Of a stretch of 64,000 bases of DNA, positions 23,569 to 29,771 are shown in pieces. Under the pieces are notes generated by a model. That model was not told the DNA's origin and did not search any database. It saw nothing but the letters and a program-made list of their open reading frames with translations. This stretch comes from an uncultured Chloroflexia bacterium. GTDB taxonomy: Bacteria > Chloroflexota > Chloroflexia > QHBQ01 > JADMIH01. Position 1 is the first letter of the stretch. Each line of letters opens with the position of its first letter. A program made the translations under genes and the position numbers. The DNA lies in the NCBI GenBank assembly GCA_963811305.1, contig CAWEQU010000008.1, forward strand, positions 68,539-132,538. Reading direction: 5' to 3'.

Positions 23569-24957
23569 ATGACTACAACTCAAACTAAGAAAGGCGTGAA
23601 CCATCAACAAGCGCCTTCCCTTCCTGGGGACCCTGTGCTCCGCTCTCTCCATGAAGCTGAAGAGGAATACAAAGAGTTTCGTGCCCTGTGGGATGAGCAA
23701 TCGTCAGAGCTTGAGGCGACGAGCGAAAAGCTGACTCGCGAAGAGGCAGCAGGCAAGCGATTAGCAGCGCAGCTGGAAAGTGCTAAGAAGCACCTGGACG
23801 AGGAGAAGAAACGGGCCGAGAGGGAGCGGAAGCGCACTAAAGAGCTGACCACCTGCCTCAAAGACGTGCACCGCGCGTTGTTCGATGGCAACATCTACAG
23901 CCTCATACTGAAGGCGTGTCTGACGGCCACCGGCGCGACGCGAGGTCTCTATATGACCGCCAGGGGGAGCGCCGATTTTCTCAAGATCAGGGCTGCCGTA
24001 GATATAAACGGCTATCCAGCAGCGCCCCCCTCCGACTTCATCAAGGCGCTCTGCTACAAGGCTCTGGAGGAGAAAGATACGGTGGTGTGCACGCGGGATG
24101 ACCTGTCCGACCTGCCTAACCCTTCCAATCCCAGCGAGCACTTTCAGAACTGCGCGGTCGCGCCCGTCGTACTGATGAAGAATTTCGATGGCATAGTGAT
24201 AGTCGCGGACAAGATAAGCGGCGATTTCAATGAAGAAGATGTAGAGATACTGCTGAGCGTGGGGGACCAGGCGTCGGTAGCCGTCGAGAATGCGCGCCTG
24301 CAACGGGAGCTACAGAGTGCGTATCTCGCCACCGTGAGCATGTTGGCCGACGTGGTAGAGGCTAAGGACCCGTATACGCATGGGCACTGTGAGATGGTGT
24401 CGCGCTACGCACGCCTGACCGCCGAGCAGTTAGCCCTCAAGGACTACGAGAGGAGCCTGGTCTGCTATGGGGCACTATTGCACGACGTTGGCAAAATCTG
24501 CGTGAGCGATGGGGTATTGAATAAGCCCGGCCCGCTCCTGCCCGAAGAGCGCGAGCTAATGCGTGCTCACGTCCGCGTGGGGCACGACTTCCTTGCCAGG
24601 GTTCCCGCCTTACAGACGGTAGCCAACGTCGTGCTGCACCATCACGAATGGTATGACGGCTCAGGCTACCCGGAGGGTCTGAAAGGAGAGGAGATACCCA
24701 TCGCGGCACGCATCGTCTGCGTGGTAGACGCCTACTGCGCCATGATTACCAAGAGGAGCTACAAAGACGCATACAGCGACCAGCGCGCCCGCGACGAGCT
24801 ACACAGGTGCGCCGGTACGCAGTTCGATGCGAAGGTGGTGGAGGCATTCATCAAGGTGCTCGACATGCCGGAAGCCAATGACGAGGATGAGGACTACGAC
24901 GCCGAGTGTGGCGTGCTCCCAGGGTTCGGCCAGTTACGCGAGCTGCAATACGCCTGA
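23569..24957 (+). CDS. HD-GYP domain c-di-GMP phosphodiesterase-like protein with coiled-coil and GAF-like N-terminus
   Basis: HD motif (ALLHDVGKI) and HHEWYDGSGYPEGLKGEEIP (GYP). The N-terminus is charged and coiled-coil (EEKKRAERERKRTKE). Confidence 0.85.
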   Translation: MTTTQTKKGVNHQQAPSLPGDPVLRSLHEAEEEYKEFRALWDEQSSELEATSEKLTREEAAGKRLAAQLESAKKHLDEEKKRAERERKRTKELTTCLKDVHRALFDGNIYSLILKACLTATGATRGLYMTARGSADFLKIRAAVDINGYPAAPPSDFIKALCYKALEEKDTVVCTRDDLSDLPNPSNPSEHFQNCAVAPVVLMKNFDGIVIVADKISGDFNEEDVEILLSVGDQASVAVENARLQRELQSAYLATVSMLADVVEAKDPYTHGHCEMVSRYARLTAEQLALKDYERSLVCYGALLHDVGKICVSDGVLNKPGPLLPEERELMRAHVRVGHDFLARVPALQTVANVVLHHHEWYDGSGYPEGLKGEEIPIAARIVCVVDAYCAMITKRSYKDAYSDQRARDELHRCAGTQFDAKVVEAFIKVLDMPEANDEDEDYDAECGVLPGFGQLRELQYA

Positions 24958-24972
24958 TCAATCAGTGCCTCC

Positions 24973-25009
24973 CATGAAAAATCGGGGCCTAGCGCCCCGA
25001 TTTTTCATG
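24973..25009 (+). terminator. 16-bp stem terminator hairpin
   Basis: CATGAAAAATCGGGGC ctagc GCCCCGATTTTTCATG, directly after the HD-GYP stop codon. Confidence 0.7.
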
Positions 25010-25325
25010 AGAAACGATATCAGGACTTACGCAAGTATACGCATCCATCGAGGAGTGGGCAGCGAACTATCGTCCGGCGTCCATCGTCTATCGTCTGCGC
25101 AAGCCCTTAAATATTAGAATTAGCGGTGTGCTTGAAACTCGATACCCTCCCGCTCATGCCTGAGACTCTTATCAACATCCGCCGTTGAGCATGATATATG
25201 GATATATGTTGGAAAAACCCTTGTGCCAATTCGGACGCACGTGGCACAGCCACCTATAGAATTGTACAAAGTCGAGCTTAGTCAAGCATTAATCGCCACG
25301 TATGTTGGCCTAATTGTATTTCTGA

Positions 25326-26678
25326 TCAAGCGTGCTCCCCTCCTCTGATCTTAGTTATTTGATCCAATAGGCAACGTACGGCAGGTGGGCTGAGCTTTTT
25401 GGGACCATCATACGAGATATGAAAGCAAACGATATTACTTGCCACCCCGCCCAAAGGAAACCAGCCAAAAAAGAATTCCCTCTCGTCAATGACAATGGCT
25501 TTGATCGTAGGCGTGAACTTGTACTTATAAAGAGACACTTTGACGTTCCCGATAGCATGATCAGCGAACTGATCACAAGCTGAATCATAGCGTCTCTTAT
25601 AACTTAACTTCGGCTTCTTTTGCGTGATGCGCGGATCATTTTCTTCCCCTTCAAACACATAACCAGCATCCCTAAGGCGTTGAGCACCAAAGTTCGTACT
25701 AGGATCGAGCATGTATATATCTAATGTGAGGGTGCTCGCTTACATTTACACAGGCATCTCTCACAGGATCGAGTATATCTACCGGATTTGTAACCCAGCT
25801 ATCAATCACTGATATTGAGCGCGTCGCTTTTCTTAGGGCGTCTTGGATTGATGGATCATGCCAATTCTTGTAAACCACAGGATAAGGTCTATTAGGCTTC
25901 TGATCAGGCCTTGACGAATTATACGATAGGTTTTCAAACGTGTTATTGAACCAGTACTGCAATTCAGTTAGCAACTGCCTCTGATACGTACTCTTCTCAC
26001 TTAAAATGTAGAATTGTGAATGATCTGGCACATTGTACGGCTTTTCCCCTTCTAGATGTTGGAATAGGCATAGCAAGCCAGTATGCCCGTTTACTATCAC
26101 AAGAATAAACGGCGGTAAGAAGTCATAATAATGAATCTGATGCTTTTTGATGAATTCATTTCGGGAGATGAGTATTTCCAAGCTCGCCTTGGTCCTATGT
26201 TTTATCCATATTTGGGAGGTGGGATTACGTGGAAATTCGTAGATTAGATTTCTCGTTGGGGTCACGAACCAATAGACGTAAGTCATATATTTGTGTCTTC
26301 AGGTTTCGAATTGCTGTCCCCACAAGTGCTGAGGTAGAGCCAAAAACGTCTAGGGTTAGTATGACTTTCTCACCTTCAAATAATCTACCCAAGGCTTCCT
26401 GCAAGTGATCAAAAGACTGCTTCTGATTATTTGTATCGTGTTGTTGACTAGCTGAGATTGAAGCCACTAGATTACCTATAGCTACGGCAGTTAGTACAGT
26501 AAGTATCGCTTGGTTATATTCTGTCGGATTCGATGTTCACGATACTTCGCACGCCCAAGAGAGCCGCTACGAACAGAGTTACTATTGTGAGCAGGTGCTC
26601 TATTTTGGTAGCACGCCTTAGGAATTCCTTGAGTCCCAACCAAAGTGATTTCCAAAGCGGAGTACCTTTCGAGTTCAT
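25326..26678 (-). pseudogene. decayed hypothetical gene (2 TM helices + two weakly similar domains) in cassette cargo
   Basis: Pieces lie in three frames: a 51-aa ORF from ATG 26678 (LLTIVTLFVAALLGV), then 26225-26467, 25699-26286 and 25326-25712. The last two fuse in frame if a 64-nt segment bounded by the 9-bp direct repeat AGGATCGAG is removed. Confidence 0.5.
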
Positions 26679-27203
26679 TCAAGCCTCCAATCTCAGCCCA
26701 TAGTGATGACCTTGCAATAGATCGAGCTGCTCAGGTTGAGCAGTTGATGCCATGTTGATTATTCCCATCACATCCGCCGGGTTCCTAGACACTGCCCACC
26801 TCCACACGCCGAAGCCGCCATGCCCATTGACGGCGCGCACCCATTCGTCAAGGGACGTGCGCTTAGTTTGGTTCTGTTGGTTATCCTGGCCTTTGACTTC
26901 AAGCACCAGATGGGAGCCGTCGGTAAGGCAGATGATGAAGTCGGGGATGTATTTCTTGATTAGTCCTTTCCAAACATAGATTATCTCGAAGCCTAGATGC
27001 TCATTCTTTACCCAGGCTTCAACATTGGGATTGCGGTCTAGCTCGAAGGCTTCGCTGGCCTCCCAGGTGCTATCGAAGATACAGAAGTTGATATGCGATC
27101 TCTTCGTGTATTCACACGCATCGCCGCTATACCAAGTGGGCATATCGCCTATGAAGCGAATGGGGTGCTCTATGACGAAGATGTAGAGGCGAAGTCTGGG
27201 CAT
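26679..27203 (-). pseudogene. C-terminal PD-(D/E)xK nuclease fragment of a type III Res-like helicase-nuclease
   Basis: HINFCIFDSTWEASEAFELDRNPNVEAWVKNEHLGFEIIYVWKGLIKKYIPDFIICL..LVLEVKG..WVRAVNGHGGFGVWRW matches the conserved tail of restriction-type helicases (from memory). There is no helicase part upstream. Confidence 0.6.
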
Positions 27204-27281
27204 AGACGTATATCCTTAAATGATAGGGAGTAATATGGCAATAGTATATCACAAAATCAGCAAATGTATTATGGTTAGGGC

Positions 27282-28298
27282 TTACGCAAGAAGCATAGTG
27301 ATGGCAGGGTTTCTGAGTTGAGCAACAAGATAGTCATGCAGCAAGCCATGCTTGAGTTGATAGACATTTCGCTTGGTCTGGTAAGTCAAGGTCTTGAGCC
27401 TGCTCCACACCAGCAGAGCACACACTATGTGGTTGCGTTGGATGCGAGCTTTGCGACACTGGCAATCCTCAAGACCCGTCAGTTGCTTGGCTTCTCAGTG
27501 AAACTCTTCAATCTTCCAGCGCAAGGCACTCGCCTCTTGAGCACCCTGCGTAGAGGATTGAGACAGATCGTTGGTCACGACCCATTCCGTGCGGTGGGTG
27601 GACACCTCAACTCGGAACAGTTTCACTTTGAAATCGCCTGGGAACCCTCTGACCTTGACCAGCTTGCCCCTCGCCAACTCCGCTTGGCTCCAACTCAACG
27701 CTTCGATGCGTCGGTACGGCTTCTCTCCACTGCTCTCGTCAACAAGACGGTTGCTCTTCAGGGGGCAGTAGAAAATCTTGCCCATTCCGGCGATTTGCAG
27801 CATAACTTCTTTGACGGCGTACCAAGCGTCCATGAGCACCGTGTGGAAAGGGAGCTTACGATTACGATGCCCTGCCATCGAAAGCATCTCTCGCACATGG
27901 TCCAACTTGCTTTTGCCATCGGTGTTAGGATCGAAGATACGGTAGTCAATCACCCAGAACTGCTCCGTATGAGGGTTGACGTACACGCAAGACACCAACC
28001 CTATCCCTCAGATTACACTCTTTTGGTTGCCGCTCCACTGCCGACGCACCATCTCAATGTGAGGTCCGAAGCTATGCTCCAGCACTGTATCATCAAAGAC
28101 CAGGCAGGCTTGCGGGTCAAGTGCCAACAGCGGCTGCACCTGTTCCTACAACAGGCGAGGCGAAAGCTTCTCTCCAAGCAGGTAACGATTGATGGTGTCA
28201 TGGCTGAAGCTTTGCAAATGCTCGGCCATGTGCGTCAGCATGTAGTTGATCTGACTGCTCAGCAGAAACTGGCAGTAGTCGAGTTTGCTAAGGCTCAT
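27282..28298 (-). pseudogene. IS701/IS4-like DDE transposase with three in-frame stop codons
   Basis: A single frame reads MSLSKLDYCQFLL...CLVFDDTVLEH...VLMDAWY...RWKIEEFH*EAKQLTGLEDCQCRKARIQRNH. Stops are TAG (LL*EQ), TGA (VI*GIG) and TGA (FH*EA). No frameshift is present. Confidence 0.8.
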
Positions 28299-28360
28299 GC
28301 CTTTAGTTTACCATCCGCCCTCCCTTCTGTTGCTGCTGCGTAAGTCCTAGATATAATATT

Positions 28361-29771
28361 TCAGCCAAGCTGGGATACCCGAACAACTTCCGGCGTGCGT
28401 GTGTAGCAATCTTCACCCCTGGACGCTCGCTGGATGGTGGACCAGATGTCGCGGATCCACTCGGGTACGATGACCGGGCGGCCTAGCTCAGACTGGAAAC
28501 GCTCGACAGTCCACTCGTCCAGGGTGCGCACGCCTGTGAAGTCGAACATGCGACGTGGGAGGAAGATGAGGTCGGCAGGCTCCTCTCCCTGAGCAGAGTA
28601 AGGTTGCAGGGCTGCGGTGACCTCCGCGCCGAAAAGTAAGCCGGAGCAGCCGACGTTTCCGCCAAGCGTGGCGTTCTCTACCACTACGAGGCGCACATCC
28701 AGCCCTTCTATATCCCTGAATGGACGAAGGGCGCGCTCCAGGGTGAGCCTGGGCATCTCGCCGCATACCACTACGACCCGTTGGGGGCGCTCGATGCTCG
28801 GTGGGAGGGTGCGGGCGGTGCGCTTCGATTCATCCAGGAGCTGGCGCACGAGGCCGACGCCGTTCTCTAGCTGGGCGTAACCCTCGTATTCCCTGGCGTG
28901 GGGCACGTCCCGGCCCGCCATGATGTACCACTCGTCGGATAAGAAGGCGAAGTTTGTGCCGATCTCATCATGCAAGCGGCGCTGCCACCCCTCGACTTGC
29001 TCAAGCACGGCAGTGCCCTCTTCAGGGCGTATATGCACGAAGGTCGAGCTTGATCTGGTAGTGGTTGTTGCGGCGGAAGCGGGTGAGGCCAATTGGCACG
29101 ACGCCCACCGTCTGCACGTGCGGGTATAGCGCGGCGAGGTCAGATATGGAACGGTCTAGCTGCGCGCCATCGTTCAGGCCGGGGCAGAGGACTAGCTGAG
29201 TGTGGGTCTGGATGCCCATCTCGCCCAGGCGGCGTAGCTGCGGTATCACTTCGGGTGCGCGGGGATTGCCGAGGAGCGCACGGCGCATCTCAGGCTCGGT
29301 GGCGTGGACCGATACGTAGAGGGGCGAGAGACGCTCTTCGTCTATTCGCTGCCAGTCGGCCTCTTTGAGGTTGGTGAGGGTGATGAACCCGCCGTAGAGG
29401 AAGGAATAGCGGTAGTCGTCATCCTTGATGTCGAGGGTGCGGCGCAGGCCGGGCGCGTTCTGGTCGACGAAGCAGAAGGGGCAATGGTTGTTGCACCGCT
29501 TGATGCCGTCGAAGGTGGGGTCTACGAACTCAAGGCCTAGGTCCTGCTGCTCAGGCTTCCTTACCGCGAGCACCAGTGGCGCGCTCAGCCCTTCGCGGGC
29601 TACCTCGATGGTAAGGCGGTTGCTCACCTGGTGGAACTGGTAGCCAACCACATCCTTCACGGGCGTGCCGTTGATAGAGAGGAGCCTGTCGCCCTCCTGC
29701 ACACCAGCGCGAGCCGCCGGGCTGTCCGGCAACACTTTATCTATTCTACCCTGACTCTTATACTGCGCCAT
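28361..29771 (-). pseudogene. PDZ + radical-SAM-like DUF512 protein, one apparent frameshift
   Basis: PDZ (AARAGVQEGDRLLSINGTPV) and Cys cluster CNNHCPFCF in 29022-29771. The DUF512-like tail (FLSDEWYIMAGRDVP..YAQLENGVGLVR) is in 28361-29092. Shift near 29040-29090. Confidence 0.75.

Follow-up and report, generated by a model that had tools for sequence, protein, structure and literature searches.

The locus and the inserted element

The window analysed here is a 64-kb stretch of the genome of an uncultured Chloroflexia bacterium (G000:C8:68539-132538, whole genome 4.6 Mb). It contains a block of 3.3 kb of foreign and largely decayed DNA at positions 25021-28349, which is proposed to be a composite transposon made of one miniature inverted-repeat transposable element (or MITE), a cargo segment and an insertion sequence (IS) of the IS701 family. 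The block lies between two convergent genes assigned by Pfam, an HD-GYP gene (23569-24957, + strand) and a DUF512 gene (28361-29771, - strand). Two IS-derived arms, with inverted ends that face outwards, enclose unrelated DNA. The assembly from which the window was taken is an error-prone metagenome-assembled genome (MAG) of 21 contigs, 71% complete and with indel errors.

The left junction was read directly as GAAAC-GATAT-CAGGACTTACGCAAG from position 25011, with CAGGACTTACGCAAG beginning at 25021 on the + strand. At the right junction (approximately 28335-28360), GCTGCGTAAGTCCTA ends at 28349 on the - strand and is followed by GATAT-AATATT. A third, internal end, TAGGGCTTACGCAAG, begins at 27276 on the + strand. 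When the 13-mer YAGGRCTTACGCA was searched without mismatches, exactly these three sites were found in the window (25021, 27276 and 28349), in agreement with the three copies described in an earlier annotation made from the letters alone (hereafter the sequence-only reading). The exact 12-mer AGGRCTTACGCA occurs 10 times in the 4.6-Mb genome: eight occurrences are accounted for by both ends of four IS copies, another by the outer left end of the unit, and the last is a stray. These counts in window and genome rule out a chance match of the ends, and the probability of finding a correctly oriented end within a few kb together with a matching 5-bp flank by chance was estimated by the author to be well under 1e-5. 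The stray occurrence is a solitary end, TGCGTAAGCCCTTA, at G000:C3:81347-81358, which lacks a partner in its vicinity and could be either a decayed MITE or a fortuitous match.

The two copies of the target-site duplication, GATAT, are located at 25016-25020 and 28350-28354. As had been noticed in the sequence-only reading, only the outermost ends have a common flanking pentamer, the inner flank of the IS being ATGGT. The inner flank of the MITE, AATAT, matches GATAT at 4 of 5 positions, a resemblance that is explained by homology to another repeat (MITE-B, described below). The duplication is thus found around the whole unit and not around its single arms.

The site before insertion

A strong palindrome, present on both strands, is located at 24973-25009, and corresponds to a bidirectional terminator hairpin common to the convergent HD-GYP and DUF512 genes. 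Its folding energy and z-score are -28.5 kcal/mol and -7.4 on the + strand, and -38.5 kcal/mol and -8.9 on the - strand. The palindrome ends 6 nt ahead of the GATAT duplication, and the DUF512 stop codon (28361-28363) is located 11 nt from the IS end, so that the landing place given before, 6 nt past the HD-GYP terminator and about 10 nt from the DUF512 stop, was correct. The hairpin serves as a landmark of the site as it was before the insertion, when it presumably terminated both genes. The DUF512 transcript would now cross the IS, in the direction of the transposase, before reaching it.

The sequence-only reading had proposed that the site should be looked for in relatives in its empty state, and it was found in three genomes of the same genus. 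In G004 (88% identity in the flanks), the same hairpin stands behind the HD-GYP gene, and the DUF512 stop codon comes about 20 nt later, with no insert. In G011 and G020 the two genes are also adjacent, with heptamer arrays of approximately 100-170 nt between them. Neither IS ends nor cargo were detected in the HD-GYP/DUF512 spacer of G004, G011 and G020, and the claim was therefore not refuted.

The insertion sequence and its decayed transposase

The element at 27276-28349 (- strand, 1074 bp) is, judged from its transposase, an IS701-family IS. It is delimited by the inner end TAGGGCTTACGCAAG (27276-27290) and by the outer end TAGGACTTACGCAGC (28335-28349, inverted), which match at 13 of their 15 terminal bases. 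A transposase pseudogene runs from 28298 to 27282 on the - strand, in a single frame of 338 codons that is broken only by a TAG (28146-28148) and two TGA codons (28008-28010 and 27495-27497). When read through the stops, it matches the Pfam domains DDE_Tnp_1 and DDE_5. The same stops were read in the assembly, confirming that the transposase is dead within one otherwise intact frame.

A search of the genome for intact copies, a check already suggested by the sequence-only reading, revealed three (C8:425887, C3:163501 and C21:146375), each of 1086 bp. They are 82% identical to the window copy, differ from it in length by multiples of three, and carry an intact open reading frame (ORF) of 342 codons each. 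The layout is therefore a single ORF of 338 or 342 aa in an element of 1074 or 1086 bp. The intact transposase (copy L003) reached 396.5 bits on the NCBIfam model NF049921, "IS701 family transposase", whose curated cut-off is 250 bits, in support of the IS701-like assignment made before. The three intact copies are flanked by duplications of CTATA, TCCTA and ACATA. All of them have 5 bp, which establishes the 5-bp rule for this element and agrees with the length of the duplication around the unit.

The best match of the transposase was found in a Chloroflexia bacterium MAG (84% aa identity), which, as the match lies at a contig start, appears to be the sister genome G024. The closest relatives outside the genus are in Rubrobacterales (69% aa), and many cyanobacteria come next (approximately 60% aa). 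The identity to anything named is at most about 60-69% aa. Weaker DNA matches of the IS were found in plasmids of Moraxella and Paraburkholderia, and a search of a plasmid collection gave nothing beyond distant transposase matches. Since the outermost 30 nt on the right side of the window IS are identical to those of the intact copies, a mobilisation of the unit in trans is plausible.

In order to date the three stop codons, the window copy was compared with two intact lineages, L003 and G024, and only the changes unique to each lineage were counted. The ancestral codons of the three stops are TGG, CGA and CGA. The window copy has accumulated 39 synonymous, 11 non-synonymous and 3 nonsense changes; the intact copies show 28 synonymous and 9 non-synonymous changes (L003), and 38 and 12 (G024), with no nonsense change in either. 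The ratio of non-synonymous to synonymous substitution rates (dN/dS) is 0.10 between the window copy and an intact copy, and 0.106 between the two intact lineages. Because both dN/dS and the non-synonymous/synonymous ratio equal those of the intact lineages, the window transposase would have been under purifying selection for nearly all its history and would have been disabled late. Three stops without a visible excess of missense changes are somewhat more than neutral drift predicts (rough P of approximately 0.05 or less, by the author's estimate).

Two other causes of the stops were considered. C>T and G>A changes make up 38 of 86 in the window copy, a share close to those seen in the two intact lineages (23 of 59; 38 of 102), and a deaminase-like hypermutation was therefore rejected. 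An alternative genetic code seems unlikely: the ancestral codons were TGG and CGA, and the neighbour genes end on ordinary stops. The contrast drawn by the sequence-only reading between these stops and the frameshift-broken genes everywhere else in the window could also be verified at the neighbouring DUF512 gene, which is broken by a 1-bp indel at approximately 29025: compared with the intact 470-aa gene of G004, it has one extra G in a G run, and appears in the window as two ORFs, one of 243 and the other of 249 aa. Long reads typically show homopolymer errors of this kind, and, because the DUF512 split resembles such an error, frameshifts in this assembly need not be real.

The 89-bp MITE and its family

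The left arm (25021-25109, + strand) aligns from end to end with the MITE consensus of the sister genome G024, and it is regarded as an 89-bp MITE belonging to the IS701-like family. It begins with the outer end CAGGACTTACGCAAG (25021-25035), continues with an interior of heptamer words, CGTCYRT, and closes with a degenerate inner end, CTGCGCAAGCCCTTA (25095-25109), which has one substitution and one extra T relative to the consensus. No ORF is present. The outer end agrees with the left inverted repeat (IRL) of the IS at 14 of the 15 terminal bases, the tip alone being different (C for T), and the inner end is one substitution and one extra base apart from an end of the type of the right inverted repeat (IRR). 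The tip CAGG is of the MITE type, unlike the IS tip, and accounts for the "Y" that the sequence-only reading had written into the end sequence.

Since the segment 25021-25109 has an inner end of its own, the unit has four ends, and its left arm is a whole MITE. The earlier count of three ends, with a "solo" end on the left, consequently had to be given up. The same features, a complete MITE with its own inner end and a CAGG tip, led to the rejection of another candidate, in which the cargo would have been inserted into a plain IS with a 15-bp "duplication" of its left end. The GACGATA words at 25066-25098, which had been taken for the left end of the cargo, are the interior of the MITE; the conclusion drawn from them, that the donor was the same or a closely related genome, was retained, now on the basis of MITE-B at 25110-25281.

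IS701-type MITEs were searched in the sister genomes by means of the exact 12-mer end, which occurs 67 times in G024 and 13 times in G020. Most of these ends form inverted pairs 46-70 bp apart, and some are separated by up to 145 bp. The commonest form is CAGGACTTACGCAAAATATACAT-(CGTCYRT)n-CTCTGCGTAAGCCCTA, in which one end is IRL-like (…ACGCAA) and the other IRR-like (…ACGCAG). Exact-ended copies were counted in G024 (22), G020 (4) and G005 (3), with one each in G001, G016 and G041. A perfect 5-bp duplication was observed at 20 of the 29 MITEs examined in G024, G020, G005, G016 and G041, and several more match at 4 of 5 positions. The duplications are AT-rich, with A or T at the first and last base. 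The number of heptamer units per copy ranges from 2 to approximately 17. An example is locus L036 (G024:C35:15340-15690), and others are L034-L047 and L134-L153.

In G000 itself only two recognisable MITE copies were found, the second at C7:384440-384514. CGTCYRT words also form 293 arrays across this genome, where they fill intergenic spacers. Only about 2 of the 293 have recognisable IS ends, and thus most of the arrays are not MITE-borne. A motif, AGGATTCACGCAT or AGGATTTACGCAT, recurs at a distance of no more than 60 nt from CGTCYRT arrays in at least five places of G000 (C3:84257, C5:227868, C6:274348, C7:468534 and C7:86325), and may be the boundary of another repeat family.

MITE-B and the presumed donor locus

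A partial copy of a different miniature element, MITE-B, was located at 25110-25281 (+ strand) by alignment with copies from G000, G005 and G016; its left end, of about 20 nt, is absent. The complete element has approximately 181 bp and the terminal repeat CTNAGCTCGACTTTGTACAAT. Three copies are present elsewhere in G000 (C5:23753-23933, C6:66177-66359 and C7:443556-443736), and it was also found in G005, G016, G011 and G013. Among the genomes searched, none from outside the genus contained MITE-B. Its parent appears to be an IS of 1.5 kb, present in three copies in G000 (C12:193022-194533, C4:17560-19078 and C9:412430-413922), with the terminal repeat CTNAGCTCGACTTTGTACAAA and at least one ORF that looks interrupted.

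The homology to MITE-B starts at 25110, the first base past the 89-bp MITE. The pentamer AATAT (25110-25114) aligns with the own sequence of MITE-B, which is AATTC in other copies, and it would be the surviving donor-site duplication of the 89-bp MITE. Because the homology begins at this base and the left tip of MITE-B is missing, an excision at the outer end of the MITE from the donor is indicated. The simplest reading of the alignment would be that the 89-bp MITE had been inserted into a MITE-B copy at the donor locus, and that the unit was later cut at the outer end of the MITE, leaving the MITE-B tip behind. A scan for the terminal repeat detected no solo MITE-B left tip in G000. Given this result and the single-copy cargo, the donor would have been another genome or the unassembled 29% of G000. 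As MITE-B is restricted to the genus, this donor was probably the same or a closely related genome, within the same Chloroflexia genus.

The cargo

The G+C content is 40-48% over most of 25000-26800, compared with 57% for the genome, which bears out the earlier description of the cargo as AT-richer. All its ORFs are read from the - strand. The ORF at 25326-25712, of 128 aa, has no match in Pfam, NCBIfam or PADLOC and is an orphan, possibly no gene at all. The region 25699-26678 encodes a two-helix membrane protein of an uncharacterised family, split into three ORFs (26514-26678, 26225-26467 and 25699-26286) with at least two frameshifts between them, which may be assembly errors. An exhaustive HMMER search revealed only three relatives of this protein (P0002-P0004), distant, unannotated and of 233-279 aa, with E-values from 2.6e-15 to 9e-4. 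Their N-terminal halves resemble the upstream ORFs of the split gene, and no Pfam domains were found in them. A word-indexed search with the cargo protein returned the query itself only.

The ORF at 26679-27203, of 174 aa, is a C-terminal PD-(D/E)xK nuclease fragment that covers residues 828-967 of the 970 in NCBIfam NF046055 (E = 1e-46). According to this match, it is what remains, approximately the last 150 residues, of a type III-like restriction endonuclease of the BPTD_3080 family, the helicase part being lost. At the DNA level it is 75% identical to the 3' end of a 942-aa gene in G024:C28, and the homologous stretch ends at 27164, leaving 111 nt to the IS. Database proteins of a size similar to this fragment are mostly type III enzyme fragments from contig ends, at most 77% identical.

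In G024:C28 (L027 1-4264), an IS end at the start of the contig adjoins a 5'-truncated N6/N4 methylase gene, which is followed by the intact 942-aa enzyme of the BPTD_3080 family. Enzyme family and orientation are those of the nuclease fragment beside the window IS, a parallel that could be coincidence or shared ancestry. An IS-mediated adjacent deletion that truncated the restriction gene, as hinted by this contig, is not supported, as the homology ends 111 nt away from the IS edge.

Pfam, NCBIfam and PADLOC gave nothing for 4 of the 5 cargo ORFs, and the only defence-profile match was a weak REase_III hit of PADLOC for the nuclease fragment. No Rfam RNA family was found anywhere in the unit. 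The cargo is single-copy in G000 and was not found in the other 25 genomes of the genus that were searched, save for the 75% restriction-fragment match in G024 and the MITE-B matches in G005 and G016. It appears to be passenger junk without evident function, consisting of a restriction-enzyme tail, a broken membrane-protein gene and orphan ORFs.

A second composite in the genus

A comparable structure was found in G004:C70 (L048 11565-13469), between rpsU and its neighbour. It consists of a 61-bp MITE, a gene of 551 aa and an inverted 50-bp MITE; both outer ends are CAGGACTTACGCAA, and ACTAT is present on either side. The corresponding empty site in G000:C9 (approximately 97147-97156) shows the matching CATGCTATACTATTATATGTTTCACC with a single ACTAT. 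By its ends and its proven empty site, the G004 unit is an independent second composite of the same MITE family. The 551-aa gene has no Pfam domain and no counterpart in the other genomes among the 26 of the genus. In this unit both inner ends carry mutations at the tip or close to it, like the inner end of the MITE in the window. Such mutated inner ends may favour the use of the outer ends, although this is speculation.

Origin of the unit

The segment 25021-28349 is considered to be a composite transposon formed by MITE, cargo and IS, with a rough probability of 85%. This is directly supported by its anatomy, the family of the IS, the 5-bp rule, the three unoccupied sites, the truncation of MITE-B at the edge of the unit and the second composite. 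The proposal of the sequence-only reading, that the 3.3-kb block moved as one unit by means of IS701-like ends, is upheld by the outer duplication, the 5-bp rule and the empty sites, and is refined here by the recognition of the three parts. At the donor locus, an 89-bp MITE descended from an IS701-family element would have lain approximately 2.2 kb from a full copy of such an IS, with the IRL-type end of the MITE and the IRR of the IS facing outwards. In what would have been a single event, a transposase of the IS701-like family would have taken these two outer ends instead of the own pair of the IS. The enzyme may have been supplied by the window IS before its decay, or by a sister copy acting in trans. 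The block would then have gone into an AT-rich pentamer 6 nt beyond the shared terminator hairpin, duplicating GATAT, and the three stops in the transposase would have arisen late.

Several observations weigh against this account. The composite is single-copy in G000, and neither a further copy nor a donor locus turned up there, among the genomes of the genus or in one exact junction scan of metagenome contigs (0 hits). A repeated mobility of this unit is therefore no more than a possibility. An error-prone, 71%-complete MAG is the sole source of the unit. Of the relatives with an unoccupied site, the nearest belongs to another species (flanks 88% identical), and intermediate stages in closer strains are possible. 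Finally, since GATAT and AATAT, the flanks of the MITE, agree at 4 of 5 positions, there is slight room for the MITE to have been inserted independently.

That last resemblance is the basis for an assembly in place by steps, which is judged improbable. The MITE would have been inserted alone with a GATAT duplication, whose right copy drifted to AATAT, and cargo and IS would have been added separately by one-ended transposition, by an insertion targeted at the MITE end or by recombination; some IS families do target their own ends. However, a 3.24-kb segment without a left end would have to be placed exactly between the MITE terminus and its duplication, and the second event would have made no duplication of its own, yet an intact GATAT follows the IS. 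The alignment of AATAT with MITE-B, which reads AATTC elsewhere, identifies this pentamer as donor context rather than target, and the 4/5 resemblance is cheap, as AATAT, TATAT and ATATA are usual targets of the MITE family.

The same outer ends and duplication would be expected if the block were the remnant of a larger island or of an ordinary IS-cargo-IS composite in which the left IS had been reduced in place to a stub of 89 bp, and internal deletion of IS copies is the origin generally proposed for MITEs (PMC9771954). Nevertheless, the stub is not derived by deletion from the neighbouring IS, with which it has no IS-internal sequence in common beyond 15 nt, and its CAGG tip and heptamer core are those of a MITE family that already existed and has dozens of copies in the sister genomes. 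Such a collapse is consequently regarded as very improbable. There is hardly any likelihood that the unit is an assembly artefact, in which IS and MITE repeats led the assembler to stitch unrelated DNA between the genes. A 21-contig, 71%-complete MAG with indel errors invites that suspicion, but a precise 5-bp duplication of a target present as a single copy in relatives is not what a misjoin would produce, and the window IS, only 82% identical to the other copies, is too divergent for repeat collapse.

Relation to known systems and significance

The composite transposon proposed here can be compared with Tn5, whose IS50L arm carries a nonsense mutation (PMC10969869). As in Tn5-type composites, there are two IS-derived arms of which the outer ends are used, a duplication of the length typical of the IS surrounds the whole, and one arm lacks a transposase. 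Unlike in Tn5, the defective arm is an 89-bp MITE without any coding remnant. The transposase of the full arm is also broken, so that the unit depends on sister copies in trans, and there is no evident selectable gene.

Composites bounded by miniature elements are known as well. Pairs of a 439-bp MITE surround class 1 integrons in Acinetobacter (PMC3934969, PMC9771954), transposition has been reported for an integron-MITE structure of Enterobacter cloacae (PMC9771954), and TIME-COMPs are composites of Tn3-derived MITEs (PMC4133298, PMC13367494). In these systems, as in the present one, non-autonomous miniature ends mobilise the enclosed genes, and a target duplication encloses the entire structure. 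This is exactly the architecture of the G004 unit (MITE-gene-MITE, ACTAT), whereas the window unit combines a single MITE with a single full IS. Its parent family, IS701, is neither Tn3, as for the TIME-COMPs, nor the one from which the Acinetobacter MITEs come. Unlike the integron units, the host is an environmental Chloroflexia bacterium and the cargo contains no resistance gene. The E. cloacae structure is known as the 'integron mobilization unit'.

The target duplication has 4 bp in the IS701 group and 5 bp in the ISAba11 group, and ISAba11 itself has approximately 1.1 kb and a 5-bp duplication. ISAba11 has been assigned to the IS701 family (PMC9771954). The elements described here resemble ISAba11-like elements in their length of approximately 1.07-1.09 kb, in their single DDE transposase of approximately 340 aa, and in having short terminal inverted repeats and duplications of 5 bp at AT-rich sites; they are candidates for that subgroup. 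A MITE with an internal minisatellite has been described in Porphyromonas gingivalis (PMC4596501), and the interior of the MITEs reported here is likewise a tandem repeat of variable number. The units differ, being of 7 nt, made of the same words as the intergenic spacers of the host and repeated from 2 to approximately 17 times. A limited literature search gave no description of IS701-family MITEs or composites in Chloroflexia.

The unit is a neat case of an already known type of mobile element, and it reveals no new mechanism. It might be thought that MITE transposition seeds heptamer arrays at new loci, since these MITEs are two ends around an expandable array of the intergenic 7-nt words of the host, and that MITE/IS composites are a recurrent import route for accessory genes in the genus, but this is considered unlikely. 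Heterocystous cyanobacteria are known for heptamers of the short tandemly repeated repetitive (STRR) type, and IS701-family elements are abundant in them.

The mobile elements of uncultured Chloroflexia have hardly been described so far. The present case, with both empty sites in hand, would show that an IS701-family element and its MITEs move neighbouring DNA as composites in these bacteria. It also provides a rule for annotation in the genus, by which one looks for ends of the type YAGGRCTTACGCA, for AT-rich duplications of 5 bp and for MITEs that measure 48-145 bp and have a core of heptamers, and it indicates that an apparent "solo end" beside a cargo may be a whole MITE.

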